A DNA stretch of 64,000 nucleotides from Pristiophorus japonicus (GCF_044704955.1 NC_091998.1:11842001-11906000); one strand, 5' to 3'; counted from the stretch's first letter, positions 8,177-63,170 are shown. Program-made: numbers and translations. The notes: generated by a model from the letters alone, not told the origin.

Positions 8177-9421
8177 CATAGAAACATAGAAACATAGAAA
8201 ATAGGTGCAGAAGTAGGCCATTCGGCCCTTCTAGCCTGCACCGCCATTCAATGAGTTCATGGCTGAACATACAACTTCAGTACCCCATTCCTGCTTTCTC
8301 ACCATACCCCTTGATCCCCCTAGTAGTAAGGACTTTATCTAACTCCTTTTTGAATATATTTAGTGAATTGGCCTCAACAACTTTCTGTGGTAGAGAATTC
8401 CACAGGTTCACCACTCTCTGGGTGAAGAAATTCCTCCTCATCTCGGTCCTAAATGGCTTCCCCCTTATCCTTAGACTGTGACCCCTGGTTCTGGACTTCC
8501 CCAACATTGGGAACATTCTTCCTGCATCTAACCTGTCTAAACCCGTCAGAATTTTAAACATTTCTATGAGGTCCCCTCTCATTCTTCTGAACTCCAGTGA
8601 ATACAAGCCCAGTTGATCCAGTCTTTCTTGATAGGTCAGTCCCGCCATCCCGGGAATCAGTCTGGTGAACCTTCGCTGCACTCCCTCAATAGCAAGAATG
8701 TCCTTCCTCAGGTTAGGAGACCAAAACTGTACACAATACTCCAGGTGTGGCCTCACCAAGGCCCTGTACAACTGTAGCAACACCTCCCTGCCCCTGTACT
8801 CAAATCCCCTCGCTATGAAGGCCAACATGCCATTTGCTTTCTTAACCGCCTGCTGTACCTGCATGCCAACCTTCAATGACTGATGTACCATGACACCCAG
8901 GTCTCTTTGCACCTCCCCTTTTCCTAATCTGTCACCATTCAGATAATAGTCTGTCTCTCTGTTTTTACCACCAAAGTGGATAACCTCACATTTATCCACA
9001 TTATACTTCATCTGCCATGCATTTGCCCACTCACCTAACCAAGTCGCTCTGCAGCCCCATAGCATCCTCCTCGCAGCTCACACTGCCACCCAACTTAGTG
9101 TCATACGCAAATTTGGAGATACTACATTTAATCCCCTCGTCTAAATCATTAATGTACAGTGTAAACAGCTGGGGCCCCAGCACAGAACCTTGCGGTACCC
9201 CACTAGTCACTGCCTGCCATTCTGAAAAGTCCCATTTACTCCTACTCTTTGCTTCCTGTCTGACAACCAGTTCTCAATCCATGTCAGCACACTACCCCCA
9301 ATCCCACGTGCTTTAACTTTGCACATTAATCTCTTGTGTGGGACCTTGTCGAAAGCCTTCTGAAAGTCCAAATATACCACATCAACTGGTTCTCCCGTGT
9401 CCACTCTACTGGAAACATCAT
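8177..9421 (-). mobile_element. 5'-truncated young CR1 LINE (RT C-terminal half to tail)
   Basis: ORFs 9207..9440 and 8277..9065 give VYLDFQKAFDKVPH and the ORF2 C-terminus. Tail at 8177-8200. catcat is present at both ends (possible TSD). Confidence 0.95.
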
Positions 9422-10034: not shown

Positions 10035-11012
10035 ATCGTTGGTGCAACCGCGCTTAGAATCCTGCCTACAGTTCTGGTGGTCACGATGTGAAAAGGATAT
10101 TGCAGCTATTGAAAGGCCATAGAAGAAAGCAAACATAATGATTGAGGGGATGGATTACGTGAAGTGATTATGCAAATTGGGCAGGCTCTCACTCGAAAGG
10201 AAAAGGTTGAGGGGTGATATGATTGCTGCTTTTAGTATTCGAAAAAAGGGACTAGATAATCTCGACCATGACAAGATAATGCACCTTGCCCACAATAGTG
10301 CACCCAGAGGTTGAACGGGGGGTAACTAATCCGTGGAAACATTATTTCAGAGAGCCAGTGGTGAATCTGTCTCCCTAAGGAGACAGGAGAAAGTAGCATA
10401 GCAAAGCAAATGGTATGTTAGCTTTTGTTACAAAAGGATTAGAATATAAGAGTAAAGAAGTCTTACTACAATTATACAGGGCATTGATGAGGCCACACCT
10501 GGAGCACTGTGTACAGTTCTGGTCCCTTTACCCAGGGAAAGACATACTTGCCTTAGAGGGAGTGCAACAAAGGTTCACTAGACTGGTTCCTGGGATGGGG
10601 GGATTGTCCTATGAGGAGAGATTGAGTGGAGTAGGCCTACATTCCCTAGGAGTTTAGAAGAATGAGAGGTGATCTCATTGAAACTTCAAATTCTTAAGGG
10701 GCTTGACAGGGTTAATGTTGAGAAAATGTTTCCCCCTGGCTAGGGAGTCTACAACACAAGGTCACAGTCTCAGGATAAGGGGTCGGCCATTTAGGATTGA
10801 GATGAGGAGAAATTTCTTCACTCCAAGGGTTGAGAGTCTTTGGAATTTCCTACCCCAGAGGGCTGTGGCGGCTCAGTCGTTGCGTATATTCAAGACAGAG
10901 GTCGATACATTTTTGGGAACGAAGGGAATTAAGGGATATGGGGATAGTGCGGGAAGGTGGAGTTGAGGTGGAAGATCAGCCATGATCTTATTGAATAGCG
11001 GAGCAGGCTCAT
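10035..11012 (+). mobile_element. Older CR1 ORF2 3' fragments (two tandem pieces)
   Basis: ORFs 10415..10657 and 10703..10966 are CR1-like. A more decayed piece lies at 10035-10375. Confidence 0.8.
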
Positions 11013-11116: not shown

Positions 11117-11267
11117 GGCAGTTGGTGAGAGGGGAGCGACCTGTCAAAAGCCCAGCGGGAGATCGAGAGCCAGCGGCAGTTGGTGAGAGGGGAGCGACCT
11201 GTCAAAAGCCCAGCGGGAGATCGAGAGCCAGCGGCAGTTGGTGAGAGGGGAGCGACCTATCAAAAGC
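11117..11267 (+). repeat. 58-bp tandem monomers (about 2.6 copies) at the CR1 5' end
   Basis: Unit ggcagttggtgagaggggagcgacctgtcaaaagcccagcgggagatcgagagccagc starts at 11117, 11175 and 11233. Confidence 0.95.
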
Positions 11268-11325
11268 ATACCGGTGCAGCTACAGCGGGAGAGAAAGCAA
11301 AATAGAAGTAGAAAGTAATCAAAAA

Positions 11326-11368
11326 GTGACGTCACAGCCAATGTGGTAAGTGATTGGCTGGTGATTGG
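11326..11368 (+). promoter_or_regulatory. Candidate CR1 internal promoter motifs: perfect CRE palindrome and three CCAAT boxes
   Basis: GTGACGTCAC at 11326-11335, gccaat at 11337, gattggc twice at about 11352 and 11363. Confidence 0.5.
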
Positions 11369-11429
11369 CGAGTAGCTTTTCTTTTCTTTTTATTGTTATT
11401 ACCAATTTAAGGGTATCTAAGATTAAGAC

Positions 11430-12377
11430 ATGGCAGGAGAGCTCGGCCATGTGATATGCTCCTCCTGTACCATGTGGGAACTCGGGGACACTTCCGGTGT
11501 CCCTGGGCGCTACGTGTGTGGGAAGTGTATCCGCCTCGAGCTCTTGACGATTCGCGTTGCGGAATTGGAGCTGAGGGTGGATTCACTCTGGAGCATCCAC
11601 GATGCTGAGAATGACGTGAGTATCACGTGTAGTGAGTTGGTCTTACCGCAGGAGAAGGGTCCACAGCCAGATAGGGAATGGAAGACCAGCAGGAAGAGCA
11701 GTGCAAGAAAGATAGTGCAGGGGTCCCCTGTGGTCATCCCCCTGCAAAACAGATACACTGCTTTGAGTACTGTTGGGGAGGATGACTCATCAGGGGAGGG
11801 CAGCAGCAGCCAAGTTCATGGCACCGTGGCTGGCTCTGCTGTAAAGGAGGGCAGGAAAAAGAGTGGGAGCGCGATAGTGATAGGGGATTCGATGGTGAGG
11901 GGAATAGATAGGCGTTTCTGCGGACGCAACCGAGACTCCAGGATGGTATGTTGCCTCCCTGGTGCAAGGGTCAAGGATGTCTCGGAGCGGGTGCAGGACA
12001 TTCTGAAATGGGAGGGAGAACAGCCAGTTGTCGTGGTGCACATTGGTACCAACGACATAGGTAAAAAAAGGAATGAGGTCCTACGAAAAGAATTTAAGGA
12101 GCTAGGAGCTAAATTAAAAAGTAGGACCTCAAAAGTAGTAATCTCGGGATTGCTACCAGTGCCACGTGCTAGTCAGAGTAGGAATCGCAGGATAGCGCAG
12201 ATGAATACATGGCTTGAGCAGTGGTGCAGCAGGGAGGGATTCAAATTCTTGGGGCATTGGAACCGGTTCTGGGGGAGGTGGGACCAGTACAAACCGGACG
12301 GTCTGCACCTGGGCAGGTCCGGAACCAATGTTCTAGGGGGAGTGTTTGCTAGTGCTGTTGGGGAGGAGTTAAACTAA
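11430..12377 (+). CDS. CR1 ORF1p: zinc finger, leucine zipper and SGNH esterase domain
   Basis: CSSC...CGKC, heptad leucines, IGDS, HIGTND and DGLH motifs. 315 aa, uninterrupted. Confidence 0.95.
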   Translation: MAGELGHVICSSCTMWELGDTSGVPGRYVCGKCIRLELLTIRVAELELRVDSLWSIHDAENDVSITCSELVLPQEKGPQPDREWKTSRKSSARKIVQGSPVVIPLQNRYTALSTVGEDDSSGEGSSSQVHGTVAGSAVKEGRKKSGSAIVIGDSMVRGIDRRFCGRNRDSRMVCCLPGARVKDVSERVQDILKWEGEQPVVVVHIGTNDIGKKRNEVLRKEFKELGAKLKSRTSKVVISGLLPVPRASQSRNRRIAQMNTWLEQWCSREGFKFLGHWNRFWGRWDQYKPDGLHLGRSGTNVLGGVFASAVGEELN

Positions 12378-15362
12378 TATTGCAGGGGGATGGGAACCTA
12401 TACAGGGAGACAGAGGGAGACAAAAATGAGGCAAAAGCAAAAGATAGAAAGGAGATGAGGAAAGGTGGAGGGCAGAGAAACCCAAGGCAAAGAACAAAAA
12501 GGGCCACTGTACAGCAAAATTCTAGAAGGACAAAGGGTGTTAAAAAAGCAAGCCTGAAGGCTTTGTGTCTTAATGCAAGGAGTATCCGCAATAAGGTGGA
12601 TGAATTAACTGTGCAAATAGATGTTAACAAATATGATGTGATTGGGATTACGGAGACGTGGCTCCAGGATGATCAGGGCTGGGAACTCAACATCCAGGGG
12701 TATTCAACATTCAGGAAGGATAGAATAAAAGGAAAAAGGAGGTGGGGTAGCATTGCTGGTTAAAGAGGAGATTAATGCAATAGTTAGGAAAGACATTAGC
12801 TTGGATGATGTGGAATCTATATGGGTAGAGCTGCAGAACACTAAAGGGCAAAAATCGTTAGTGGGAGTTGTGTACAGACCTCCAAACAGTAGTAGTGATG
12901 TTGGGGAGGGCATCAAACAGGAAATTAGGAGTGCATGCAATAAAGGTGCAGCAGTTATAATGGGTGACTTTAATATGCACATAGATTGGGCTAGCCAAAC
13001 TGGAAGCAATACGGTGGAGGAGGATTTCCTGGAATGCATAAGGGATGGTTTTCTAGACCAATATGTCGAGGAACCAACTAGGGGGGAGGCCATCTTAGAC
13101 TGGGTGTTGTGTAATGAGAGAGGATTAATTAGCAATCTCATTGTGCGAGGCCCCTTGGGGAAGAGTGACCATAATATGGTGGAATTCTGCATTAGGATGG
13201 AGAATGAAACAGTTAATTCAGAGACCATGGTCCAGAACTTAAAGAAGGGTAACTTTGAAGGTATGAGGCATGAATTGGCTAAGATAGATTGGCTAATGAT
13301 ACTTAAGGGGTTGACTGTGGATGGGCAATGGCAGACATTTAGAGACCGCATGGATGAATTACAACAATTGTACATTCCTGTCTGGCGTAAAAATAAAAAA
13401 GGGAAGGTGGCTCAACCGTGGCTATCTAGGGAAATCAGCGATAGTATTAAAGCCAAGGAAATGGCATACAAATTGGCCAGAAATAGCAGCGAACCTGGGG
13501 ACTGGGAGAAATTTAGAACTCAGCAGAGGAGTACAAAGGATTTGATTAGGGCAGGGAAAATGGAATACGAGAGGAAGCTTGCAGGGAACATTAAGGCGGA
13601 TTGCAAAAGTTTCTATAGGTATGTAAAGAGAAAAAGGTTAGTAAAGACAAACGTAGGTCCCCTGCAGTCAGAATCAGGGGAAGTCATAACGGGGAACAAA
13701 GAAATGGCAGACCAATTGAACAAGTACTTTGGTTCAGTATTCACTAAGGAGGACACAAACAACCTTCCGGATATAAAAGTGGTCAGAGGGTCTATTAAGG
13801 AGGAGGAACTGAGGGAAATCTTTATTAGTCGGGAAATTGTGTTGGGGAAATTGATGGGATTGAAGGCCGATAAATCCCCAGGGCCTGATGGACTGCATCC
13901 CAGAGTACTTAAGGAGGTGGCCTTGGAAATAGCGGATGCATTGACAGTCATTTTCCAACATTCCATTGACTCTGGATCAGTTCCTATCGAGTGGAGGGTA
14001 GCCAATGTAACCCCACTTTTTAAAAAAGGAGGGAGAGAGAAAGCAGGGAATTATAGACCGGTCAGCCTGACCTCAGTAGTGGGTAAAATGATGGAATCAA
14101 TTATTAAGGATGTCATAGCAGCGCATTTGGAAAATGGTGACATGATAGGTCCAAGTCAGCATGGATTTGTGAAAGGGAGATCATGCTTGACAAATCTTCT
14201 GGAATTTTTTGAGGATGTTTCCAATAAAGTGGACAAAGGAGTACCAGTTGATGTGGTATATTTGGACTTTCAGAAGGCTTTCGACAAGGTCCCACAAAGG
14301 AGATTAATGTGCAAAGTTAAAGCACATGGGATTGGGGGTAGTGTGCTGACGTGGATTGAGAACTGGTTGTCAGACAGGAAGCAAAGAGTAGGAGTAAATG
14401 GGTACTTTTCGGAATGGCAGGCAGTGACTAGTGGGGTACCGCAGGGTTCTGTGCTGGGGCCCCAGCTGTTTACATTGTACATTAATGATTTAGACGAGGG
14501 GATTAAATGTAGTATCTCCAAATTTGCGGATGACACTAAGTTGGGTGGCAGTGTGAGCTGCGAGGAGGATGCTATGAGGCTACAGAGTGACTTGGATAGG
14601 TTAGATGAGTGGGCAAATGCGTGGCAGATGAAGTATAATGTGGATAAATGTGAGGTTATCCACTTTGGTGGTAAAAACAGAGAGACAGACTATTATCTGA
14701 ATGGTGACAGATTAGGAAAAGGGAAGGTGCAACGAGACCTGGGTGTCATGGTACATCAGTCATTGAAGGTTGGCATGCAGGTACAGCAGGCGGTTAAGAA
14801 AGCAAATGGCATGTTGGCCTTCATAGCGAGGGGATTTGAGTACAGGGGCAGGGAGGTGTTGCTACAGTTGTACAGGGCCTTGGTGAGGCCACACCTGGAG
14901 TATTGTGTACAGTTTTGGTCTCCTAACTTGAGGAAGGACATTCTTGCTATTGAGGGAGTGCAGCGAAGGTTCACCAGACTGATTCCCGGGATGGCGGGAC
15001 TGACATATCAAGAAAGACTGGATCAACTGGGCTTGTATTCACTGGAGTTCAGAAGAGTGAGAGGGGACCTCATAGAAACGTTTAAAATTCTGACGGGTTT
15101 GGACAGGTTAGATGCAGGAAGAATGTTCCCAATGTTGGGGAAGTCCAGAACCAGGGGTCACAGTCTAAGGATAAGGGGTAAGCCATTTAGGACCGAGATA
15201 AGGAGAAACTTCTTCACCCAGAGAGTGGTGAACCTGTGGAATTCTCTACCACAGAAAGTAGTTGAGGCCAATTCACTAAATATATTCAAAAGGGAGTTAG
15301 ATGAAGTCCTTACTACTCGGGGGATCAAGGGGTATGGCGTGAAAGCAGGAAGTGGGTACTGA
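12374..15362 (+). CDS. CR1 ORF2p: APE endonuclease and reverse transcriptase, one +1 A frameshift at about 12735
   Basis: NARSI, GITETW, GGGVA (after correction), [38 protein letters not shown]. Split into ORFs 12380..12763 and 12753..15362. Confidence 0.95.
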
Positions 15363-15755
15363 AGTTTCATGTTCAGCCATGAACTCATTGAATGGCGGTG
15401 CAGGCTAGAAGGGCTGAATGGCCTGCTCCTGCACCTATTTTCTATGTTTCTATGTTTCACTGACAATGAACTCCATAAAACAACAGGAAATTGGTATGGA
15501 TGATGCTTCAAAAGAGTTCGGAGCAGGAGTCGGCCATTCGGCCCATCGCGCCTGCTCCATCATTCAATGAGATCATGGCTGATCTTCCACCTCAACTCCA
15601 CTTTCCTGCACTATCCCCATATCCCTTAATATCCAAAAATGTAACATTCATGGATGTATTGTATAGAAGGATCAATAGCTTTGGCCCGTCTGTTCTGGGT
15701 CTGTATCACAATACCAAAGACACATTCAAAAGATAGGTTTACAAGTGGCACTTAC

Positions 15756-15832: not shown

Positions 15833-16247
15833 CTGAAACGGAGAAAGAAGCAACAAGAACAGTTATGGAACAGAACAGAAAACACGGAGCAGTACTGTGA
15901 CCAACATTTCACACATTGTTTCTACCAACTTGCCCACACTGACTACATCAAAGTCTGTATGATACTATGGATTGAAAACAGTCCGACTTTGGGATAAAAG
16001 CGTCAGGTAGTTGGATACAAGTTAACCAATAACAGTTAGCGAATAAGTAACTCTTTCCCACGGCAGCGGTTGATGATTCTGCCATTTACACCCTATCTAG
16101 ACTCATCTTTTGTTCCTTAGCTTGTTCCATTACCATCTCCTTTCGCCCTGCACCATCATCCCTTTTGTCTCTTCTGCCTTCCACCCGATCACAGACCTTC
16201 CCTTTCGTTCTTTCCTCCCCTCCCCCCTTCCCTGCCTCTCATAATCA

Positions 16248-16866
16248 TCCTGCATGGCTCAGAGACATGGACCATGTACAGTAGACACCTCAAGTCGCTG
16301 GAGAAATACCACCAACGATGTCTCCGCAAGATCCTACAAATCCCCTGGGAGGACAGACGCACCAACACTAGTGTCCTTGACCAGGCCAACATCCCCAGCA
16401 TTGAAGCACTGACCACACTTGATGAGCTCCGCTGGGCAGGCCACACTGTTCGCATGCCAGACATGAGACTCCCAAAGCAAACGCTCTACTCGGAATTCCT
16501 TCACGGCAAACGAGCCAAAGGTGGGCAGAGGAAGCATTACAAGGACACCCTCAAAGCCTCCCAGCAACATCCCCACTGAAACCTGGGAGTCCCTGGCCAA
16601 AGATCGCCCTAAGTGGAGAAGTGCATCCGGGCAGGCGCTGAGCACCTCGAGTCTCGTCGCCGAGAGCGTGCAGAAATCAAGCGCAGGCAGCGGAAAGAGC
16701 ATGCGGCAAACTTGTCCCATCCTCCCTTACCCTCAACGATTATCAGTCCCACCTGTGACAGGAACTGTGGCTCTTGTATTAGACTGTTCAGCCACCTAAG
16801 AACTCATTTTAAGGGTGGAAGCAAGTCTTCCTCGATTCAGAGTGACTGCCTATGATGATGATGATG
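16248..16866 (+). mobile_element. RTE-clade LINE 3' fragment
   Basis: SETWTMYSRHLKSLEKYHQRCLRKIL...LRWAGH..RMPD.RLPKQ, C-terminal CCHH-like finger, (TGA)n tail. Confidence 0.9.
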
Positions 16867-16869
16867 GAT

Positions 16870-17362
16870 ATGCAGTCCCTCGAAATCAACTTGCTTCCAC
16901 TCCGAAAGTGAGTTCTCAGGTGACTGAACAGTCCAATTCAGGAATTACAGTCCCTGTCGCAGGTGGGGCAGACAGTCGTTGGAGAAAAGGGTGGATAGGG
17001 AGTCTGGTTTGCCGCACGCACTTGTTTTCTGCATCAGCGCCCTCCTGGATGCTCTTCCTCCACTTAGGGCGGTCTTAGGCCAGGGACTCCCAGGTTTCAC
17101 CTGGGGCTCACTTGCCGTGCAGGAGTTCAGAGTAGAGCGCTTGCTTTGAGAGTCTTGTGTCGGGCATGCGGACCATGTGGCCCGCCCAACGGAGCTGGTC
17201 GAGCGTGGTCAGTGCTTCAATGCTGGGGACGTGGGCCTGATCAAGAACACTCATGTTGGTGCGTCTGTCCTCCCAGGGGATTTGCAGGATCTTGTGGCGG
17301 CATCGTTGGTGGTATTTCTCCAGCGACTGGAGGTGTCTACTGCACATGGTCCATATCTCTGC
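16870..17362 (-). mobile_element. RTE-clade LINE 3' fragment with internal deletions, inverted relative to its neighbour
   Basis: ORF 17108..17347 has the same RTE motifs. Confidence 0.88.
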
Positions 17363-17405
17363 CCCTACACTTGCTTAAAAACCTGTTACATCTCTAACTT
17401 TATCC

Positions 17406-18895: not shown

Positions 18896-19996
18896 TTCAC
18901 AGAGCCAATGAGGGATGATGAGCTGTGGTGCTAGGAAAGCTGACCCAATGCATGATCAAAGAGGGAGGGTTTGAGGCAGAAGGGTTAGAGAGAGGGATTT
19001 AAAGTTCCGTGTCAAGACGAGCAAGGCTGTATCTCCATATGTGGTACTGGGAGGGGGCAAATGTAAAGGTGGAGATTAGAATACAAATGAAGGGCATTGT
19101 GTTGGGATGTATGGCTGGAGACGATGCAAAGATAGGTATATTCAGGGCTCTGGAATTCAACTATAGAAAAAAATAATGAAGCAGAATGAGATGGCCAATG
19201 AAAACCATGAAGAGGTCAAGTAGGATAAGGAGGGGTCGCGCACTGCACAGTCACAAATGAGGTCCTTGCTGATGTTGACCAGGGCAGTCTTAATGTTGGC
19301 AGGGCAGAATCCATCCTGAAGGGATTTGCACAGGGAGAGATGGAACAGAGCTGAAATCCTTGAATTCTGATCATTTAAAATGATAGCCAAATGATACGAG
19401 CAAGCTAAATTGGCAGAAAAACTCCACTCATTAATCCCCGGGTCCTTTTGCGAGCGTGGTATTTCATAAGAACATAAGAAATAAGAGCAGGAGTCGGCCA
19501 TTCGGCCCCTCGAGCCTGCTCATGGCTGATCTACCTCAACTCCACTTTCCTGAACTATCCCCGTATCCCTCGATTCCCTTCATATTTCAATCGTGTAAGC
19601 ACAGCAGACTCAGCCACACATCCAAACTATGGCCTCATGTCTCAGGGACGTCACCAGTGCTCATTGATTTTTAAAGAGCCAAGAGGAATAAATTAGTCCA
19701 CTGTACTGTTGCAGAAAGAAAATGTGCTTTCAGCATTCGATCCAAGCTGCGGGCCAAAGAAAAAAATGCTTCAGGGATGCAAGTCAGGAGGAACTGACTA
19801 CACGCCACCCAGCTTCTTTTTTAGGGTTTACAGCTGTTTCAGTAAAAGGATTAAGAGAAAACCAACCGATGATTTAATTGAGAGTTGTAATTTGAATGAA
19901 TGAGGGCAAAACTAAGTCAGAGGTGAAAAATCACAGTCCCCGCTTGGGGGAGGGGGGGGGTCTCTTGTGTTCCGTGGGGGCTGGCTGAAGGTATTA

Positions 19997-20678
19997 ACAT
20001 AAGAATTAGGAGAAGGATTAGGCCATTCAGCCCCTCGAGCCTGCTCCGCCATTCAATAAGATCATGGCTGATCTTCGGCCTCAACTCCACTTTCCTGCCC
20101 GATTCCCATATCCCTTGATCTTTAATATTCAAAAATCTATCGCTCTCTGTCTTGAATATACTCAACGACTGAGCATCCACTGCCCTCTGGGGTAGAGAAT
20201 TCCGAAGATTCATCACCCTCTGAGTGAAGAAGTTTCTCCTCATCTCAGTCCTAAATGGCCAACCCTTTATTCTGAGACTGTGACCCCTGGTTCTAGACTC
20301 CTCAGCCCGGGGAAACATCCTCCCTGCATCGACCCTGTCAAGCCCCGTAAGTACGTTGTATGTTTCAATGAGATCATTCTCATTTTTCTAAACTCTAGGG
20401 AATATAGGCCCAGTCTACTCAATCTCTCCTCATAGGACAATCCCCCATCCCAGGAATCAGTCTGGTGAACCTTTGTTGCACTCCCTCGATGGCCAGTATA
20501 TCCTTCCTCAGGTAAGGAGACCAAAACTGTGCACAATACTCCAGGTGCGATCTCCTCAGGGCCCTATATAATTGCAGTAAGACGTCTTTACTTGCAATAA
20601 AGTCAACATACCATTTGCTTTGTTAATTGCTTGTATATACCTACCGGTATATGTTAACTTTCAGCGATTCGTGTAACA
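19997..20678 (-). mobile_element. CR1 3' fragment
   Basis: ORFs 20267..20536 and 19917..20318 carry CR1 C-terminal motifs. Confidence 0.9.
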
Positions 20679-31217: not shown

Positions 31218-31918
31218 CCCTTGTACACCAGTCATTGAAAGCAAACCTGCAGGTGCAGCAAGCAGTTCGGAAGGCAAATGGTATGTTGGCCTTCATTGCA
31301 AGAGGATTTGAGTATAGGAGCAAGGATGTCTTACTACAGTTCGACGGGGCCTTGGTGAGACCGCACCTGGAGTATTGTGTGCAGTTTTGGTCTCCTTACC
31401 CAAGAAAGGATATACTTGCCATAGAGGGAGTGCAGCGAAGGTTCACCAGACTGATTTCTCATACGACAGTCCTGCCATCCCAGGAGAGATTGGGTCGACT
31501 AGGCCTGTAGTCATTAGAGTTTAGAAGAATGAGAGGGAATCTCATGGAAACATATAAAATTGGAGAGACTGGATGCAGGGAGGATGTTTCCCCGGGCTGG
31601 GAAGTCGAGAACAAGGGGTCACAGTCTCAGGATACGGGGTAGGAAATTTAGGACCGAGATGAGGAGAAATTTTTTCACTCAGAGGGTGGTGAACCTGTGG
31701 AACTCTCTACCACAGAAGGCTGTGGAAGCCAAGTCACTGAATATATTTAAGAGGGAGATAGATAGATTTCTAGAAACAAAAGACATCAAGGGGTTTGGGG
31801 AAAAAGCGGGAATGTGGTGTGGAGATAGATGATCAGCCATGATCATAGTGAACGGCGGTGCAGACTCCAAGGGCCGAATGGTCTACTACTGCTCCTAGTT
31901 TCTATGTTTCTATGTTTC
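31218..31918 (+). mobile_element. CR1 3' fragment
   Basis: ORFs 31235..31510 and 31560..31832, octamer tail. Confidence 0.9.
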
Positions 31919-34525
31919 TCAGGTCCAACCCTGATATTATCACTAAACCTGCTGATAAGAGAGGCACTGTTGTTATCTGTCGAACCTTGCGGAAGCTGAA
32001 CACCAACTCTCCAACACTTCCTCAGACCTCCTCATGGACCTTGACCCCACCACCGAACATCAAGCCATCATTTCTAATACTGTTACAGACCTCATCTCCT
32101 CTGGTGATCTTCCCCCCCACGGCCTCCAACCTCAGTCCCCCAACCCCGCACAGCCCGTTTCTACCTCCGTCCCAAGATCCACAAACAGGACTGCCCCAGT
32201 AGACCCATTATTTCAGCCCGTTCTTGCCCCACGGAACTTATTTCTTCCCATCTCGAGTCCATTTTGCCTCCACTTGTCCAGTCTCTTCTGACATACACCC
32301 TCCACCACTTTAACAGTTTCCTGGCCCTAACCATCTCCTTTTCACCATGGAGGTCCAATCCCTCTACGTCCAATCCACCCCCGCCAGTCAGCCTGAGGGC
32401 GATTCGCTTCATCCGTAAAGAGAGGCCCAACCAGTCCCCATCCACCACCCTCACCGCCTGGCTGAACTTGATCTCACATTGAACAACTTCTCCTCTGACA
32501 CCTCTCACTTCCTCCAAATAAAAAGCTGTTGCTATGAGAAGCTGTATGGGCCCTAGCTATGCCTGCCTTTACGTGGGATATGTAGAACATTCTTTGTTTC
32601 AGTCTTACTCACGTCCCCTCTCTCTCCTCTTTTTCCAGTACATTGATGACTGTATTGGTGCTGTTTCCTGCTCTCGCCCTGAACCGGAAAATTTCATCAA
32701 CTTTGCTTCATCAACTAAGCAGGGAGGTCTTACTGCAGTTGTACAGGGCCTTGGTGAGGCCTCACCTGGAGTATTGTGTTCAGTTTTGGTCTCCTGATTT
32801 GAGGAAGGACGTTCTTGCTATTGAGGGAGTGCAGCGAAGGTTCACCAGACTGATTCCCGGGATGGCTGGACTGACATATGAGGAGAGACTGGAGCAACTA
32901 GGCCTGTGAGAGGGGATCTTATAGAAACATATAAAATTCTGACGGGTCTGGACAGGTTAGATGCAGGAAGAATGTTCCCGATGTTGGAGAAGTCCAGAAC
33001 CAGAAGAGGATAAGGGGTAAGCCATTTAGGACCGAGATGAGGAGAAACTTCTTCACTCAGAGAGTTGTTAACCTGTGGAATTCTCTACCGCAGAGAGTTG
33101 TTGATGCCAGTTCGTTAGATATATTCAAGAGGGAGTTAGATATGGCCCTTATGGCTAAAGGGATAAAGGGGTATGGAGAGAAAGCAGGAAAGGGTACTGA
33201 GGTGAATGATCAACCATGATTTATGAATGGTGGTGCAGGCTCGAAGGGCCCCGAATGACCTGCTCCTGCACCTATTTTCTATATTTCTATGTTTCTAATT
33301 TCCACCCTTCCCTCACATTCACATGGTCCATCTCCAACTCTTCCCTACCCTTCCTTGACTTCTCTATCTCCACTTCTGAGGCTAGGTTATCGACCAATAT
33401 CTATTATAAGCCAACGGACTCCCACAGCTACCTAGACTACACTTCCTCCCACCCAGCTACCTGTAGGGACTCTATTCCATTCTCCCGGTTTCTTCGTCGC
33501 ATCTGTTCTGACGATGCCACTTTCCATTCTAGTGCTTCCAGTATGCCTTTCTTTTCCCTCAACCGAGGATTCCCCTCCAGCATGGTTGACATGGCCCTCG
33601 ACCGTGTCCATTCTATTTCACGCACCTCTGTTTTCACCCCTTCCCTCCCTCCCAGAACCACGGTAGAGTTCCCCATGATCCTCACCGTTCACCCCACCAG
33701 CCTCCACATTCAACGGATCGTCCTCTGCCATTTCAGCCACCTCCAGCGTGATCCCACCACCAATCACATCATCCCCTCCCCTCCTCTCCCAAAGGGACCG
33801 CTCCCTCTGCGGCACCCTGGTCCAATTCCGCAGTCACCCCCAGCATCCCCTCCTCTTCCCACGGCACCTTCCCGTGCAAGCGCAGGAGATGCATCACCTG
33901 CCCTTTTACCTCCTCCCTTCCCACTATCCAGGACCCCAAACACTCCTTCCAGATGTGAAAGCGATTTACTTGTACTTGTTTCAATGTAGTATACTGAATT
34001 CGCTGCTCACGATGTGGTCTCCTCTACATTAGGGAGACCAAGCGTAGATTGGGTGACCGCTTTGCCGAACACCTCCATTCAGACCGTAAGTGTGACCCCG
34101 AGCTTCCGGTTGCCTGTCACTTAAATCCTCCGTACCTCTCGCCCTCTGACCTCTCCGTCCTCGGCCTCTTACACTGTTCCAATGAAGTTCAACGCAAGCT
34201 CGAGGAACACTTTATCTTTCGATGAGGCACTTTACAGACTCGTCATCGAGTTCAGCAATTTCAGATCAAAGCCACTGCTCCCAATGTTTCAAGCAGTAGC
34301 TGCTGTAATGATTCCGCTGTTCATTAAATCACTCCTGCCTTCCAGCCTATCGCGGACCTTCTCGTTTGTTCTTTCCGCCCCGCCGCCCTTTCCCTGCACC
34401 CGTGCTGGCTAAAAAACCTGTTACCTGTGTGACGTATTCCTCACAGACCTGAAACGTTAACTCGGTTTCACTCTCCATAGATGCTGCCTGGCCTGCTGAG
34501 TGTTTCCAGCATTTTCTATTTAAAT
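31919..34525 (+). mobile_element. Decayed Penelope-like element (RT and GIY-YIG endonuclease), split by a CR1 insertion
   Basis: KPADK(R)G, MGPSYACLYVG, FQYIDD, LPFLD, YYKPTDSHSYLDYTSSHP, IPFS..RICS, and NVVY*IRCSRCGLLYI.ET.RRL..RF.EH. Confidence 0.88.
32717..33297 (+). mobile_element. CR1 3' fragment nested in the PLE
   Basis: [20 protein letters not shown] through to the ttctatgtttcta tail. The PLE frame resumes after it. Confidence 0.9.
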
Positions 34526-34580
34526 AAAACATTTATTTAGCACCTTTCACAACTCCAGGACGTCTTGAAGCACTTTTGAG

Positions 34581-35218
34581 TGCGAGAGGATTTGAGTATA
34601 GGAGCAGGGAGGTCTTACTGCAGTTGTACAGGGCCTTGGTGAGGCCACACCTTGAATATTGTGTACAGTTTTGGTCTCCTAATCTGAGGAAGGACATTCT
34701 TGCTATTGAGGGAGTGCAGCAAAAGTTCACCAGACTGATTCCCGGGATGGCAGGGCTGACATAAGAAAGAAAGACTGGGTCGACTATGTTTATATTCTCT
34801 GGAATTTAGACGAATGAGAGGGGATCTCATAGAAACGTATAAAATTCTGACGGTATTGGACAGTTTAGAGGCAGGAAGAATGTTCCCAATGTTGGGGAAG
34901 TCCAGAACCAGGGGTCACAGTCTAAGGATAATGGGTAAGCCATTTAGGACTGAGATGAGGAGAAACGTCTTCACTCAGAGAATTGTGAATCTGTGGAATT
35001 CTCTACCGCAGAGAGTTGTTGAGGCCAGTTCGTTAGGTATATTCAAAAGGGAGTTAGATGTGGCCCTTACGGCTAAAGGGATCAAGGGGGATGGAGAGAA
35101 AGCAGGAATGGGATACTGAAGTGCATGATCAGCCATGATCATATTGAATGGTGGTGCAGGCTCGAAGGGACAAATGGCCTACTCCTACACCTATTTTCTA
35201 TGTTTCTATGTTTCTATG
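34581..35218 (+). mobile_element. CR1 3' fragment
   Basis: ORFs 34576..34764 and 34814..35119, octamer tail. Confidence 0.9.
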
Positions 35219-45924: not shown

Positions 45925-48722
45925 AAGAATATAGAAAGTTAAGAGGCAAAATTAAAAAGGATATTAGGAATGCTAAGAGAGAGCACGAGAAATTCTTGGC
46001 CAGTAAGATTAAGGAAAACCCTATTCTATAAATATATTAAGAGTAAGAGGGTAACCAAAGAAAGGGTTGGGCCTATTAGAGGCCATGAGGGTAATCTTTG
46101 TGCGGAGGCGGAAGATGTTGGTAGGGTTCTTAACGAATACTTTGCATCTGTTTTCACAAAGGAAAGGGGTAATGCAAGGCCAGCTGCGCAGCAGCCCAGC
46201 GAGGGCCCAACAAATGACTCACCAAAATCAGCATTTGAGCATTTGCACCGAGACGATCAACCAGGGAAAGGAAGGCCCAGATCTACTCATCTTGTAAATA
46301 GTTACATGATTTACTTTTTGGGGGGGGGGGAGGGGGGAGTGTTGTTATATATGTAAACCTGTAAATACCTTGTTTAACCACCAGAGGGCTCATCCTCTGG
46401 AGTCCCAAGGGATCCCACAATCCTTTGGGAGAACTATACATAACAAGGCCTCACAGGTTGGAGAGGCACTCTGGAGACCTGAATAAAAGACTATGGTCAC
46501 ATGTTACTTTGAGCTCACAGTATCTGGTCAGATTCTTTATGCAAGACACAACACAGAGGGTGGTGAATCTCTGGAATTATCTACCCCAGATGGCTGTGGA
46601 GGCTCAGTCATTGAGTATATTCAAAACAGAGATCGATAGATTTTTGGATATTAAGGGAATCAAGGGATATGGGGTTATTGCAGGAAAGTGGAGTTGAGAT
46701 CGAAGATCAGCCATGATCTCATTGAATGGCAGAGCAGGCTCAAGGGGCCGAATGGCCTACCCCTGCTCCTAATTCTTATGTTCTCATTCTTATACTGCTA
46801 TCAAGAAGGAGTGTGATATTCTGGATGAAATAAATATAGTGAGAGAGGAAGTATTAAGGGGTTAAGCAGCTATGAAAGTAGATTAGTCCCCAGGCACGAA
46901 TGAAATGAATCCCAGGCTGTTGAGCGAAGTAAAAGAGGAAATAGCAGAGGCCTTGACCATCATTTTCCAGTCCTCTTTGGATCTGGGCATGGTGCTGGAG
47001 GATTGGAGGACTGCTAATGTTGTACCCTTGTTTAAGAAGGAAGAAAGGGATAGACCGAGTAATTACAGGCCTGTCAGCCTAACCTCAGTGGTGGGAAAAT
47101 TATTGGAAAAAATCCTGAAAGACACGATAAATCTGCATTTGGAAAGGCAAGGATTAATTAGGGACAGTCAGCACAGCTTTGTTAAGGGAAGATCGTGTTT
47201 GACTAACCTGATTGAATTTTTTGAGAAGGTAACCAAGAGGGACAATGAGGGTAGTGCATATGATGTAGTATATATGGACTTTAGCAAGGCTTTTGATAAG
47301 GGTTCCACATGGTAGACTGGTCATGTAGATTAAAGCTCTTGGGATACAGGGCAAAGTGGCAAGTTGGATCCAAAATTGGCTTGGAGGTAGGAAGCAAAGG
47401 GTTATGATTGATGGATGTTTTTGTGATTGGAAGGATGTTTCCAGTGGGGTTCCACGGGGCTCAGTACTGGGTCCTTTGCTTTTTGTGGTATATATCAATG
47501 ATTTAGATTTGAATATAGGAAGTATGATTAAGAAGTTTGCAGACAACAATAAAATTGACTGTGTGGTTGATAATGAAGAGGAAAGTCATGGGCTGCAGGA
47601 GGATATCAATCTACTGGTCAGGTGGGCAGAGCAGTGGCAAATGGAATTTAATTCAGAGAAGTGTGAGGTGATGCACTTTGGGAGGGCTAATAAGGAAAGG
47701 GTATACACATTAAGCAGTAGGCCACTTAATAGTGTAGATGAACAAAGGGACCTTGGAGTGCTTCACCACAGATCCCTGAAAGTAGCAGGCCAGGTGGATA
47801 AGGTAGTTAAGAAGGCATACAGAATGCTTGCCTTTATTGGCCAAGGCATAACATATAAGAGCAGGGAGATTATGCTTAATTTGTATAATACTTTGGTTAA
47901 GCCACAGCTGGAGTACTGCGTGCAGTTCTGGCCGCCGTATTATAGGAAGGATGTGATTGCACTAGAGAGGGTGCAGAGGAGATTTACTAGGATGTTGCCT
48001 GGAATGGAGAGTCTTAGTTATGAGGACAGATTGGATTGGTTGGGTTTGCTCTCATTGGAACAGAGGAGGTTGAGAGGAGACCTCATTGAAGTGTACAAAA
48101 TATTGAGGGACCTGGACATAGTGGATAGTAAGGGTCTATTTCCATTGGTGGAGGGGTCTATTACGAGGGGGCATAGTTTTAAGGTGGTTGGTGGAAGGTT
48201 TAGAGGGGATTTGAGTGGGGGGACTTCTTTACGCAGAGGGTTGTGGGGATCTGGAGCTCGTTGCCTGGAAGAATGGTGGATGCAGAAACCCTCATCACTT
48301 TTAAGAGATAGTTGGATGGGCACTTAAAGTGCAGTAACCTTGTTGGATGGCGCAGATATAATGGTAAGTACTGTAGGGAATAGAATACAGCCAGGGTGAT
48401 CTCCTGGACTAGTTTTGATTTCCTGGATGGGTCGGAGAGGAATTTTCCCAGATTTTTTCTCCCTATATTGGCCTGGGTTTTTATCTGTTTTTTACCTCTC
48501 ACATGGCTCCGGTTGGGGTGGAGTGTAGAATGTTTCAGTATAAGGGGTGTCGAAGTTGTGTGAGGTGGACTGGTTGGGCTGGGTGCTCTTTGCCTTTCCG
48601 TCATTGGTCATAGGTTTATATGTAACCTTTAGGGCTGCTCACTAAGTGCCTTGCAGCTCTTTGTCGGCCGGTGCAGACAGGATGGGCCGAAATAGCCTAC
48701 TTCTGTGCTGTAAATCTCTATG
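45925..48722 (+). mobile_element. 5'-truncated CR1 LINE (different family), decayed RT; interrupted at 46176-46783
   Basis: ORFs 45970.., 46905..47315 and 47356..48327: NYRPVSL, MDFSKAFDK, GVPRGSVLGP, FADN. Distinct long 3' UTR. Confidence 0.9.
46176..46553 (+). mobile_element. Gypsy 3' remnant: end of pol, PPT and 3' LTR (about 46343-46553)
   Basis: RRSTRERK-like pol terminus, G-rich PPT at 46320-46339, TGTTAT...ACAACA LTR with AATAAA. Confidence 0.75.
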
Positions 48723-55992: not shown

Positions 55993-56405
55993 AATGGGCC
56001 TATACGCTCTGGAGTTTAGAAGAATGAGAGGTGATCTAGTTGAAACATACAAGATTCTGAGGGGGATTGACAGGGTAGATGCAGAGAGGTTGTTTCCCCT
56101 GACTGGAGAGTCTAGAACGAGGGGGCACAGTCTCGGGATAAGGGACTGAAATGATGAGGAATTTCTTCACTCAGAGGGTTGTGTATCTTTGGAATTCTCT
56201 ACCCCAGAGGGCTGTGGATGCTCAGTCGTTGAGTATATTCAAGGCTGAGAGCAACAGATTTTTGAACTCTAAGGGAATCAAGGGAAATGGAGATTGGGCT
56301 GGAAAGTGGAGTTGAGGTAGAAGATCAGCCGTGATCGTACCGAATGGTGGAGCAAGCTCGAGGGGCCGTGTGGCCTTCTCCTGCTGCTAATTCTTATGTC
56401 CTTAG
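55993..56405 (+). mobile_element. CR1 3' fragment
   Basis: LEFRRMRGDL, RTRGH, FFTQRVV motifs and 3' UTR. Confidence 0.88.
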
Positions 56406-57285
56406 AACATCTTCAATTGTTTGGTTTATGGGCTGTTTCTCAAATTCTGCCCTGTTGAGCATCCCTGATTATAACTGCTCATCCTTTGGTGGTCGTGCCT
56501 TCAGCTGCCTGGGCTCCAAGCTCTGGAACTCCCTCCCTAAACCTCTCCGCCTCTCTACCTCTCTCTCCTCCTTTAAGATGCTCCTTAAAACCTAACTCTT
56601 AGACTAAGCTTTTTGTTATCTGCCATAATTTCTTCTCATGTGGCTCAGTGTCAAATGTATTTGTTTTGTCTTATAATACTCCTATGAAGCGCCTGGGACG
56701 TTTTACTGCATTAAAGGTGCTATATAAGTGTTGTGTATGCAATAACTGTTAAACTGAGTACTGTTTAACTCCAAGAGGTATGACCTTGGCTCTGCTTTAT
56801 TAAGGCCCAAAGTGACTAATATACAAAATGGCTGGCCTTTTATACTTGGGCTGCACACATGTGCGTGGCCTCCAATAGTGACGCCATCTAGTGGCTAGTG
56901 ATCCCAAAAGTTCATACATGACATAAGAACATAAGAAATAGGAGCCGGAGTAGGCCATACGGCCCCTCGAGCCTGCTCCGCCATTTAATATGACCATGGC
57001 TGATCTGATCATGGACTCAGGTCCACTTCCCCGCCCAGTCCCCATAACCCCTTATTCCCTTATCGGTTGAGAAACTGTCTATCTCTGTCTTAAACTTATT
57101 TAATGTCCCAGCTTCCACAGCTCTCTGAGGCAGTGAATTCCACAGATTTACAACCCTCTGAGAGAAGAAATTCCTCCTCATCTCAGTTTTAAGTGGGCGG
57201 CCCCTTATCCTAAGATCATGCCCTCTAGTTCTATTCTCCCTTATCAATGGAAACATTCTCTCTGCATCCAGCTTGTCAAGCTCCC
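56247..57285 (+). repeat. Direct duplication copy 1 (1039 bp; copy 2 at 61699-62734)
   Basis: Collinear CR1 end, L2 end, solo LTR and inverted CR1 end. Roughly a dozen substitutions and one 3-nt indel. Confidence 0.97.
56729..56923 (-). mobile_element. Gypsy solo LTR (195 bp); duplicate at 62181-62375
   Basis: TGTCATGTATG...CATACACAACA inverted termini, TATAAAA and AATAAA on the minus strand, TAAG on both flanks. Confidence 0.75.
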
Positions 57286-61698: not shown

Positions 61699-62734
61699 GA
61701 GATCAACAGATTTTTGAACTCTAAGGGAATCAAGGGAAATGGAGATTGGGCTGGAAAGTGGAGTTGAGGTAGAAGATCAGCCGTGATCGTACCGAATGGT
61801 GGAGCAAGCTCGAGGGGCCGTGTGGCCTTCTCCTGCTGCTAATTCTTATGTCCTTAGAACATCTTCAATTGTTTGGTTTATGGGCTGTTTCTCAAATTCT
61901 GCCCTGTTGAGCATCCCTGATTATAACTGCTCATCCATTGGTGGTCGTGCCTTCAGCTGCCTGGGCCCCAAGCTCTGGAACTCCCTCCCTAAACCTCTCC
62001 GCCTCTCTACCTCTCTCTCCTCCTTTAAGATGCTCCTTAAAACCTAACTCTTAGACTAAGCTTTTTGTTATCTGCCATAATTTCTTCTTATGTGGCTCAG
62101 TGTCAAATGTATTTGTTTTGTCTTATAATACTCCTATGAAGCGCCTGGGACGTTTTACTGTATTAAAGGTGCTATATAAGTGTTGTGTATGCAATAACTG
62201 TTAAACTGAGTACTGTTTAACTCCAAGAGGTATGACCTTGGCTCTGCTTTATTAAGGCCCAAAGTGACTAATATACAAAATGGCTGGCCTTTTATACTTG
62301 GGCTGCACACATGTGCGTGGCCTCCAATAGTGACGCCATCTAGTGGCTAGTGATCCCAAAAGTACATACATGACATAAGAACATAAGAAATAGGAGCCGG
62401 AGTAGGCTATACGGCCCCTCGAGCCTGCTCCGCCATTTAATATGACCATGGCTGATCTGATCATGGACTCAGGTCCACTTCCCCGCCCAGTCCCCATAAC
62501 CCCTTATTCCCTTATCGGTTGAGAAACTGTCTATCTCTGTCTTAAACTTATTTAATGTCCCAGCTTCCACAGCTCTCTGAGGCAGTGAATTCCACAGATT
62601 TACAACCCTCTGAGAGAAGAAATTCCTCCTCATCTCAGTTTTAAGTGGGCGGTCCCTTATCCTAAGATCATGCCCTCTAGTTCTAGTCTCCATCAGTGGA
62701 AACATCCTCTCTGCATCCACCTGGTCAAGCTCCC
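61699..62734 (+). repeat. Direct duplication copy 2
   Basis: Begins immediately after the LTR terminus (catgaca|gagatc). Confidence 0.97.
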
Positions 62735-63170
62735 TCATAATCTTATACGTTTCGATAAGATCACCTCTCATTCTTCTGAATTCCAATGAGTAGAGGCCCA
62801 ACCTCCTCAACCTTTCCTCATAAGTCAACCCCCTCATCTCTGGAATCAACCTAGTGAACCTTCTCTGAACTGCCTCCAAAACAAGTGTATCCTTTCGTAA
62901 ATATGGAAACCAAAACTGCACCAATACCCTGTGTAACTGTAGCAAGACATCGCTGCTTTTATACTCCATTCCCTTTGTAATAAAGGCCAAGATTCCAATG
63001 GCCTTGCTGATCACTTGCTGTACCTGCATACTAACCTTTTGTGCTTCATGCACCAGGACCCCAGGTCCCGCTGTACTGAGGCACTTTGCAATCTTTCTCC
63101 ATTTAAATAATAACTTGCTCTTCGATTTTTCTTCTGCCAAAGTGCATCACCTCACATTTTCTAACATTAT
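62376..63170 (-). mobile_element. CR1 3' fragment
   Basis: ORF 62469..63140 carries CR1 C-terminal motifs. Confidence 0.9.

Follow-up and report, generated by a model that had tools for sequence, protein, structure and literature searches.

A probable programmed -1 ribosomal frameshift site at the ORF1/ORF2 junction of a CR1-type LINE from Pristiophorus japonicus

How the second open reading frame (ORF2) of long interspersed nuclear elements (LINEs) is translated is described as an open question in reviews (PMC3894237, PMC3708506). L1, SART1 and Zorro3 carry two ORFs on one RNA and express ORF2 at a low level without fusing it to ORF1, L1 through AUG-independent initiation (PMC5009743), SART1 through a UAAUG stop-start (PMC3894237) and Zorro3 through an ATG of its own that is required (PMC1965478). 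The Dictyostelium elements TRE5-A and TRE3-A, retrotransposons that lack long terminal repeats (non-LTR elements) and have an APE-type endonuclease, are said to need a -1 frameshift for ORF2, and the passages of the source that treat them describe no cross-phylum conservation of a heptamer (PMC5911963); +1 frameshifting has been suggested for Paramecium elements. At the ORF1a/1b junction of arteriviruses and coronaviruses the polymerase lies in the -1 frame behind GUUAAAC in equine arteritis virus (EAV), or UUUAAAC in the virus of porcine reproductive and respiratory syndrome (PRRSV) and lactate dehydrogenase-elevating virus (LDV) (PMC3835772, PMC5009743), while the gag-pro and gag-pol sites of simian retrovirus 1 (SRV-1), feline immunodeficiency virus (FIV) and mouse mammary tumour virus (MMTV) are of the types G_GGA_AAC and A_AAA_AAC (PMC3835772). 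The element described here is a full-length CR1-type LINE at about 11117-15458 on the + strand of a 64,000-nt stretch of Pristiophorus japonicus DNA (the window), and the comparison of its ORF1/ORF2 junction with that of its relatives argues that ORF2 is likely made by programmed -1 frameshifting, as an ORF1-ORF2 (esterase-endonuclease-reverse transcriptase) fusion.

The junction resembles a nidovirus or retrovirus shift site, yet it fails the usual test of a 3' structure. It shares with the arterivirus and coronavirus sites the same heptamers in the same register and a polymerase in the -1 frame, and in EAV the 3' element likewise starts 5 nt downstream (PMC3835772). In contrast to the strong pseudoknot of these viruses, the 3' region of the LINE is purine-rich and unstructured, and the host of the site is a non-LTR retrotransposon. 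The retroviral heptamers correspond to two classes of ORF1 ends described below, GN and KN, of which KN is known from protein only, and the proposal shares with retroviruses an excess of structural protein over fused polymerase; unlike retroviruses, the LINE has neither protease nor integrase, leaving a fusion without element-encoded processing. TRE5-A and TRE3-A resemble the element in being APE-type non-LTR retrotransposons, but belong to a different clade, have an unrelated ORF1 and overlap their ORFs. L1, SART1 and Zorro3 are alike in their two ORFs per RNA and low-level ORF2, and differ in the modes of ORF2 expression given above. A further parallel is the PRRSV nsp2TF site, where a short unstructured motif lies about 10 nt past the shift site, as does the G5 run of the LINE past its heptamer, although the viral motif is C-rich with known binding proteins (PMC5009743) and that of the LINE is G-rich.

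ORF1 (11430-12377, + strand, 315 aa) terminates GAG TTA AAC TAA, and thus places the heptamer G_TTA_AAC (12368-12374) in the X_XXY_YYZ register with the stop codon TAA (12375-12377) abutting it. This is the sole in-frame slippery-type heptamer in ORF1 of the window copy, and the endonuclease frame is -1 relative to ORF1. Across the element, TTA is used for 15 of 107 Leu codons, and 20 of 50 Asn codons are AAC. An earlier note on this DNA had proposed a virus-style -1 signature of heptamer, stop codon and a quadruplex of four G-tracts; the heptamer in its register, the stop and the G-tracts (12385-89, 12392-94, 12405-07 and 12415-17) were all found where it had placed them, as was the earliest ATG of the -1 frame at 12455, and the -1 frame of ORF2 was confirmed for this copy and for three diverged families. 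The comparison of sequences supports its central proposal, a frameshift that would join ORF1 and ORF2 in one protein, but not the four-tract quadruplex as stimulator. In the proposed mechanism, a minority of ribosomes would shift back by one base on (G/U)_UUA_AAC, with tRNA-Leu and tRNA-Asn pairing anew in the -1 frame, and the shifted product would read ...E-L-N-L-I-(L/W)-Q-G-D-G-N..., whereas unshifted ribosomes would stop and release ORF1p, which would thereby be in excess. Less securely, a pause would be provided by the abutting stop codon together with a G-rich element of 19 nt that begins 5 nt past the heptamer.

The heptamer is conserved in this genome. Loci picked by similarity, two of the queries spanning the junction, fall into three families, A (that of the window, with several subfamilies), B and C, family B having ORF1 relatives (P0068, P0049) that are 49-57% identical to the window's ORF1. 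Family A (n=99) carries 60 G_TTA_AAC, 38 T_TTA_AAC, the form of the sister subfamilies, and 1 other heptamer; family B (n=33) carries 26 T_TTA_AAC, 1 G_TTA_AAC and 6 degenerate or misregistered sites, and T_TTA_AAC is present in 30 of 32 copies of family C, where the stop is TAG. With both forms counted, families A, B and C keep the heptamer in 98/99, 27/33 and 30/32 copies, respectively. A position-picked control of 800 kb, made up of 80 10-kb stretches spaced at fixed intervals, gave 15 ORF1 ends, two of which were read directly, being dropped by the filter; G/T_TTA_AAC followed by TAA or TAG is found in 14 of them, and the fifteenth is an old copy with a one-base variant. The codon preceding TTA specifies Glu, Asp, Cys, Gly, Ala or Ser, yet ends in T or G, and TTA AAC is fixed although families A and B have an identity of only 0.51 at the third positions of ORF1. 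The heptamer thus stands in 0-frame register with its synonymous positions conserved. The -1 phase is shared too. The endonuclease motif is found in the -1 frame of single copies in 78/99 of family A, 11/33 of family B (13 unreadable) and 20/32 of family C, the copies without it carry copy-specific indels, and the majority sequences of all five groups are open in -1 with stops in the other two frames. The downstream frame is open from the heptamer in the five family majorities and in the metagenomic locus L091, and is broken further on in the window copy.

Similar ends recur in other organisms. In contigs from four other organisms, taken at 80% likeness and so pre-selected for similarity, variants of at least 3% occur between 12335 and 12415 only at 12366-12368, 12378, 12379 and 12381; the sole change to the heptamer is G to T at its first base, and 12382-12398 is without a listed variant. 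In three of the four organisms the contigs cover the end of ORF1 and the start of the endonuclease but not 12438-12471, where the AUG lies; loose contig ends diverge after 12396-12401. Out of 206 matches, 131 esterase ORF1 proteins have a tail that can be read, and 82 of these tails end in LN, 11 in GN and 2 in KN (95/131, against an average of 3.7 and a maximum of 10 in shuffled tails), and ten more relatives have the pair internal to the tail, five of them as KN at the matching place. The three ends are the products of U_UUA_AAC, G_GGA_AAC and A_AAA_AAC, respectively, which are among the shiftiest heptamers (PMC5009743). The residue preceding LN can be encoded by a codon ending in T in 81 of 82 proteins; residues that cannot are found once directly before LN, versus 35/82 and 23/82 one and two places upstream, and GN is preceded by Gln in 9 of 11 cases. 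Snake and bird relatives terminate in ALN at the protein level. At the DNA level, a metagenome scan gave three loci, one without an ORF1 end. L091 ends CAG GGA AAC TAG and is followed at -1 by a 928-aa endonuclease-reverse transcriptase frame that shares 42% identity with ORF2 of the window copy; L093 reads CAG GGA AAC TAC TAG at the end of its contig. Scans of viral, genome-contig and plasmid collections returned no DNA loci of other lineages, and the bird, snake, KN, FF and YLN classes are known from proteins only; a YLN-type protein query matched families A and B alone.

The five proteins with KN at the matching place (P0147, P0150, P0176, P0181 and P0195) form one branch and reach their stop 8-12 codons further on, tails that would fit the expectation for A_AAA_AAC with a short overlap. 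In three others (P0113, P0133, P0152) FF is followed by one last residue, and P0157 has GFL, possible U-rich sites seen in proteins only. Among named ORF1 relatives, the nearest come from sharks and rays; P0006, a shark-type LINE ORF1 60% identical to the window's, bears an NCBI label as a bacterial SGNH hydrolase, and the record is likely contaminated with host DNA.

A conserved protein end offers a different account of these tails, in which the terminal LN is a motif of the esterase, its codons are fixed by descent and ORF2 is reached by splicing, a separate RNA or internal entry. All genome copies are indeed related and families A and C agree well (0.93) over the last 30 nt ahead of the stop, but descent would have to hold TTA AAC fixed beside third positions that have diverged to 0.51 between families A and B. 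In a tree that FastTree built from 95 esterase domains (terminal residues excluded, midpoint root, branch supports not inspected) GN, KN, EN, FLN and FF ends are intermixed in one branch, and a ZfL2-1-like branch is without them; the ZfL2-1 esterase of known structure, too, has no end of this kind in the alignment. Switching among LN, GN and KN, which are the products of known slippery heptamers, is predicted by frameshifting and not by a protein motif or by reinitiation. Contig joints are few, confined to single contigs and without splice ends, although contigs cannot exclude splicing. The protein-motif account is thus highly improbable. Termination at the ORF1 stop followed by -1-frame reinitiation, at the AUG at 12455 or at a non-AUG codon, is a somewhat better contender that we nevertheless hold unlikely; it would yield a separate ORF2p and make the heptamer a by-product or part of a reinitiation signal. 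Such a mode has been proposed for L1 and demonstrated for SART1. Family A lends itself to it, as an AUG precedes the endonuclease in 73/74 open copies, an ATGA overlap lies 80 nt past the heptamer in 81/99 and a TGGGA word occurs within 30 nt in 93/99. TGGGA is a motif like the termination upstream ribosome-binding site (TURBS) of caliciviruses. L1 and SART1 provide precedents in their AUG-independent start (PMC5009743) and UAAUG (PMC3894237). However, the stop in ATGA is not that of ORF1, TGGGA follows the ORF1 stop rather than preceding it and is present in only 2/33 copies of family B, and no in-frame AUG stands at the ORF1 stop as in SART1 or caliciviruses, the nearest being 80 nt away in family A. 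TURBS-like reinitiation was rejected, its geometry suiting family A only. Reinitiation also makes no prediction of XXX-YYZ codons, of the exchange of TTA, GGA and AAA before AAC, of a fixed -1 phase or of a frame open from the heptamer.

The position of the AUG is itself variable. The linker between the shift site and the first endonuclease Asn (12374-12574, the Asn codon being 12572-12574) is basic, of low complexity and of family-variable length (51-68 codons), poorly alignable and open solely in -1. Its first AUG lies at codon 28 in young and codon 18 in older copies of family A and at codon 42 in family B. In family C 12 of 13 open copies have no Met ahead of the endonuclease, the earliest Met of the majority sequence being at codon 184, beyond the NA motif (53) and TETW (79). 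The AUG at 12455-12457 is thus the earliest in-frame one in the window's subfamily and is not conserved, which weakens the caveat of the earlier note that it precedes the endonuclease. In sister subfamilies the ATG directly after the ORF1 stop is in the +1 frame. By shuffling, the chance of an open frame up to the first Met is 0.011 in family C, 0.004 in L091, 0.076 in family B and a non-significant 0.22-0.37 in family A. A 22-codon 0-frame ORF at 12390-12458, found in family A only, begins within the conserved G-rich element and ends at the ATGA that overlaps the 12455 AUG.

Several of these observations, with others, weigh against frameshifting. The families share ancestry, so that copy counts are not independent, and G_UUA_AAC, an imperfect heptamer, is the majority form (60/99) of the young family A. 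The contigs from other organisms were selected by likeness, 26 of the 131 relatives have no LN, GN or KN in the tail, and the GN class is represented in DNA by two loci only, one of them without ORF2. The open stretch before the AUG is non-significant in family A, in nearly all of whose open copies an AUG precedes the endonuclease, 12 of the 19 family-B copies that can be read have ATG as linker codon 42, and in L091 two Met stand immediately ahead of the endonuclease. Absence of an AUG is by itself no proof of slippage, because human L1 ORF2 initiates without requiring its AUG (PMC5009743). A weak search for natural in-frame esterase-endonuclease-reverse transcriptase fusions found none, returning one unrelated gene model. 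Finally, no local hairpin or pseudoknot was detected 3' of the site in the first 100 nt past the stop (z +0.74 and -0.23), and Rfam gave no match above gathering at the junction, only two chance-level hits. Viral -1 sites usually require a 3' structure (PMC3835772), and the stem-loop or pseudoknot 5-9 nt downstream that is typical of them is absent here.

The G-rich sequence downstream of the heptamer is the candidate for a stimulator. Frameshifting driven by a three-quartet RNA G-quadruplex of the four G-tracts, as the earlier note had it, has in its favour that the four-G3 pattern (loops of at most 12 nt) is present in 80/99 copies of family A, occurs once in the 3.9-kb coding part and is predicted by ViennaRNA in the window copy; since its G4Hunter score of 1.36 also falls in the top 1% of 25-nt windows, the G-richness is real. 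Synthetic quadruplexes do stimulate -1 shifting (PMC5009743). The pattern is nevertheless found in only 8/33 copies of family B and in 0/32 of family C and is lost from the ECLN subfamily of A; tracts 3 and 4 (12405-12417) are specific to family A, and other organisms diverge ahead of them. Its loops are long (10 and 7 nt), the predicted energy is only -6.5 kcal/mol, and four G3 tracts with loops of at most 7 nt occur in 0/99, 5/33 and 0/32 copies of families A, B and C. The four-tract quadruplex was thus rejected as a conserved signal, and as the driver of shifting we consider it improbable. What is conserved is the 19-nt G-rich element at 12380-12398, whose majority sequence is identical in 55/69 older family-A copies and in 18/32 copies of family C. 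Families A and C share it down to every third position of the -1 frame, subfamily A1 and family C agreeing at 18 of its 19 positions, and identity drops to 0.0-0.5 over the following 120 nt. Family B and L091 differ here, with another G-rich stretch lying similarly far downstream. As the conserved element begins 5 nt, not 10 nt, past the heptamer, the concern that the spacer is slightly long loses weight. A two-quartet pattern is found within it in 63/99, 26/33 and 23/32 copies of families A, B and C (background 4.5%), and is absent at that place from the window's subfamily, which has no first GG, and from L091. Because local hairpins and pseudoknots are wanting, any effect of the element, a candidate stimulator, would depend on a protein bound to it, on a compact two-quartet fold or on pairing with a distant site. 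The ORF1 stop beside the heptamer may also help shifting, by analogy with an umbravirus shift site for which an adjacent stop codon is reported (PMC5009743).

A possible distant partner lies within ORF1, where 11735-11747 is a 13-nt perfect complement of 12380-12392 and comprises codons ahead of the conserved NR[YF] motif. At 13 bp, the two make up the longest perfect inverted repeat that the element has, and it is in the youngest subfamily that this repeat is strongest. Within 2.4 kb, this helix is the best partner of 12380-12392, at the same place, in A1, A2, A3 and family B, and ranks sixth in family C and L091. Compared with synonymous recoding it reaches P 0.001-0.002 in family A (where the A1 site was found post hoc), 0.06 in C, 0.24 in B and 0.43 in L091, and cross-pairing revealed no family specificity. 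A second perfect inverted repeat of 12 bp joins 12601-12612 with about 13210-13221 in the endonuclease region, some 600 nt apart, and is probably due to chance; long helices can therefore arise by chance in this element. The long-range helix is a lead only, passing the recoding control in family A alone.

The rest of the element has a CR1 layout. Its 5' untranslated region (UTR) contains a 58-bp unit repeated 2.6 times (11117-11267, + strand, TRF), and 8 of the 28 sibling alignments that extend to the junction side start at 11117. ORF1 consists of a CX2C-X16-CX2C finger, a linker with an NRY motif, an SGNH esterase (PF13472) and a C-terminus in ...GEELN-stop, and its profile matches structure 4c1b, the esterase of the ZfL2-1 ORF1 (E 4e-47). 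The remainder of ORF2 (12729-15362, + strand, 877 aa) comprises the APE endonuclease and the reverse transcriptase (PF03372, PF14529, PF00078). The -1 frame of this copy terminates at 12761-12763, because the A-run at 12733-12737 has five A instead of the four of a sibling copy, a one-base insertion that breaks ORF2; among sibling loci, 16/29 are open across all 625 codons examined. Beyond 3' UTR hairpins, the element ends, without poly(A), in 3.1 copies of an 8-bp unit (15435-15458, + strand, TRF). Short 3' repeats in place of poly(A) are a feature of the CR1 clade, and most bird LINEs are CR1; over 352 aa, the reverse transcriptase part shares 50% identity with the swallow reverse transcriptase protein P0212, a comparison made without a named CR1 reference set. 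The Cys finger and esterase of ORF1, the domains of ORF2 and the 3' repeats are all CR1-clade traits, although the esterase is not exclusive to CR1-like elements because RTEX and Penelope carry one too (PMC3905857). Elsewhere in the window lie many 5'-truncated CR1 copies of 65-96% identity, none extending to the junction (1-748, 8181-9419, 10403-11009, 19996-20586, 31223-35214, 46551-48118, 55995-57277 and 62373-63170). Adjoining the element, 16121-17400 contains fragments of a different LINE type on both strands, RTE-like in their C-terminal sequence.

The literature searched contains no statement of CR1 frameshifting; it did not cover older CR1 descriptions and Repbase notes, where an earlier mention is possible. 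We would tentatively extend the frameshift reading to the ancestral mode of esterase-bearing CR1 elements, from the GN class to sharks, snakes and birds: a Gag-Pol-style -1 frameshift without a pseudoknot, in which the stop codon and a short G-rich element might be a new natural stimulator and the reverse transcriptase would be made as an esterase-endonuclease-reverse transcriptase fusion. Within this extension, the G-rich element may be bound by a protein, form two quartets or pair with ORF1 sequence some 640 nt upstream, at the rear of the ribosome. This genome is extremely rich in CR1-type elements, a single ORF1 query giving about 180,000 first-look candidate matches, and the elements have relatives in snakes and birds. 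If frameshifting holds, the N-terminus of ORF2p would be fused to the esterase, annotations of ORF2 without a start codon would be explained, and vertebrates would possess a -1 frameshift without a visible pseudoknot.

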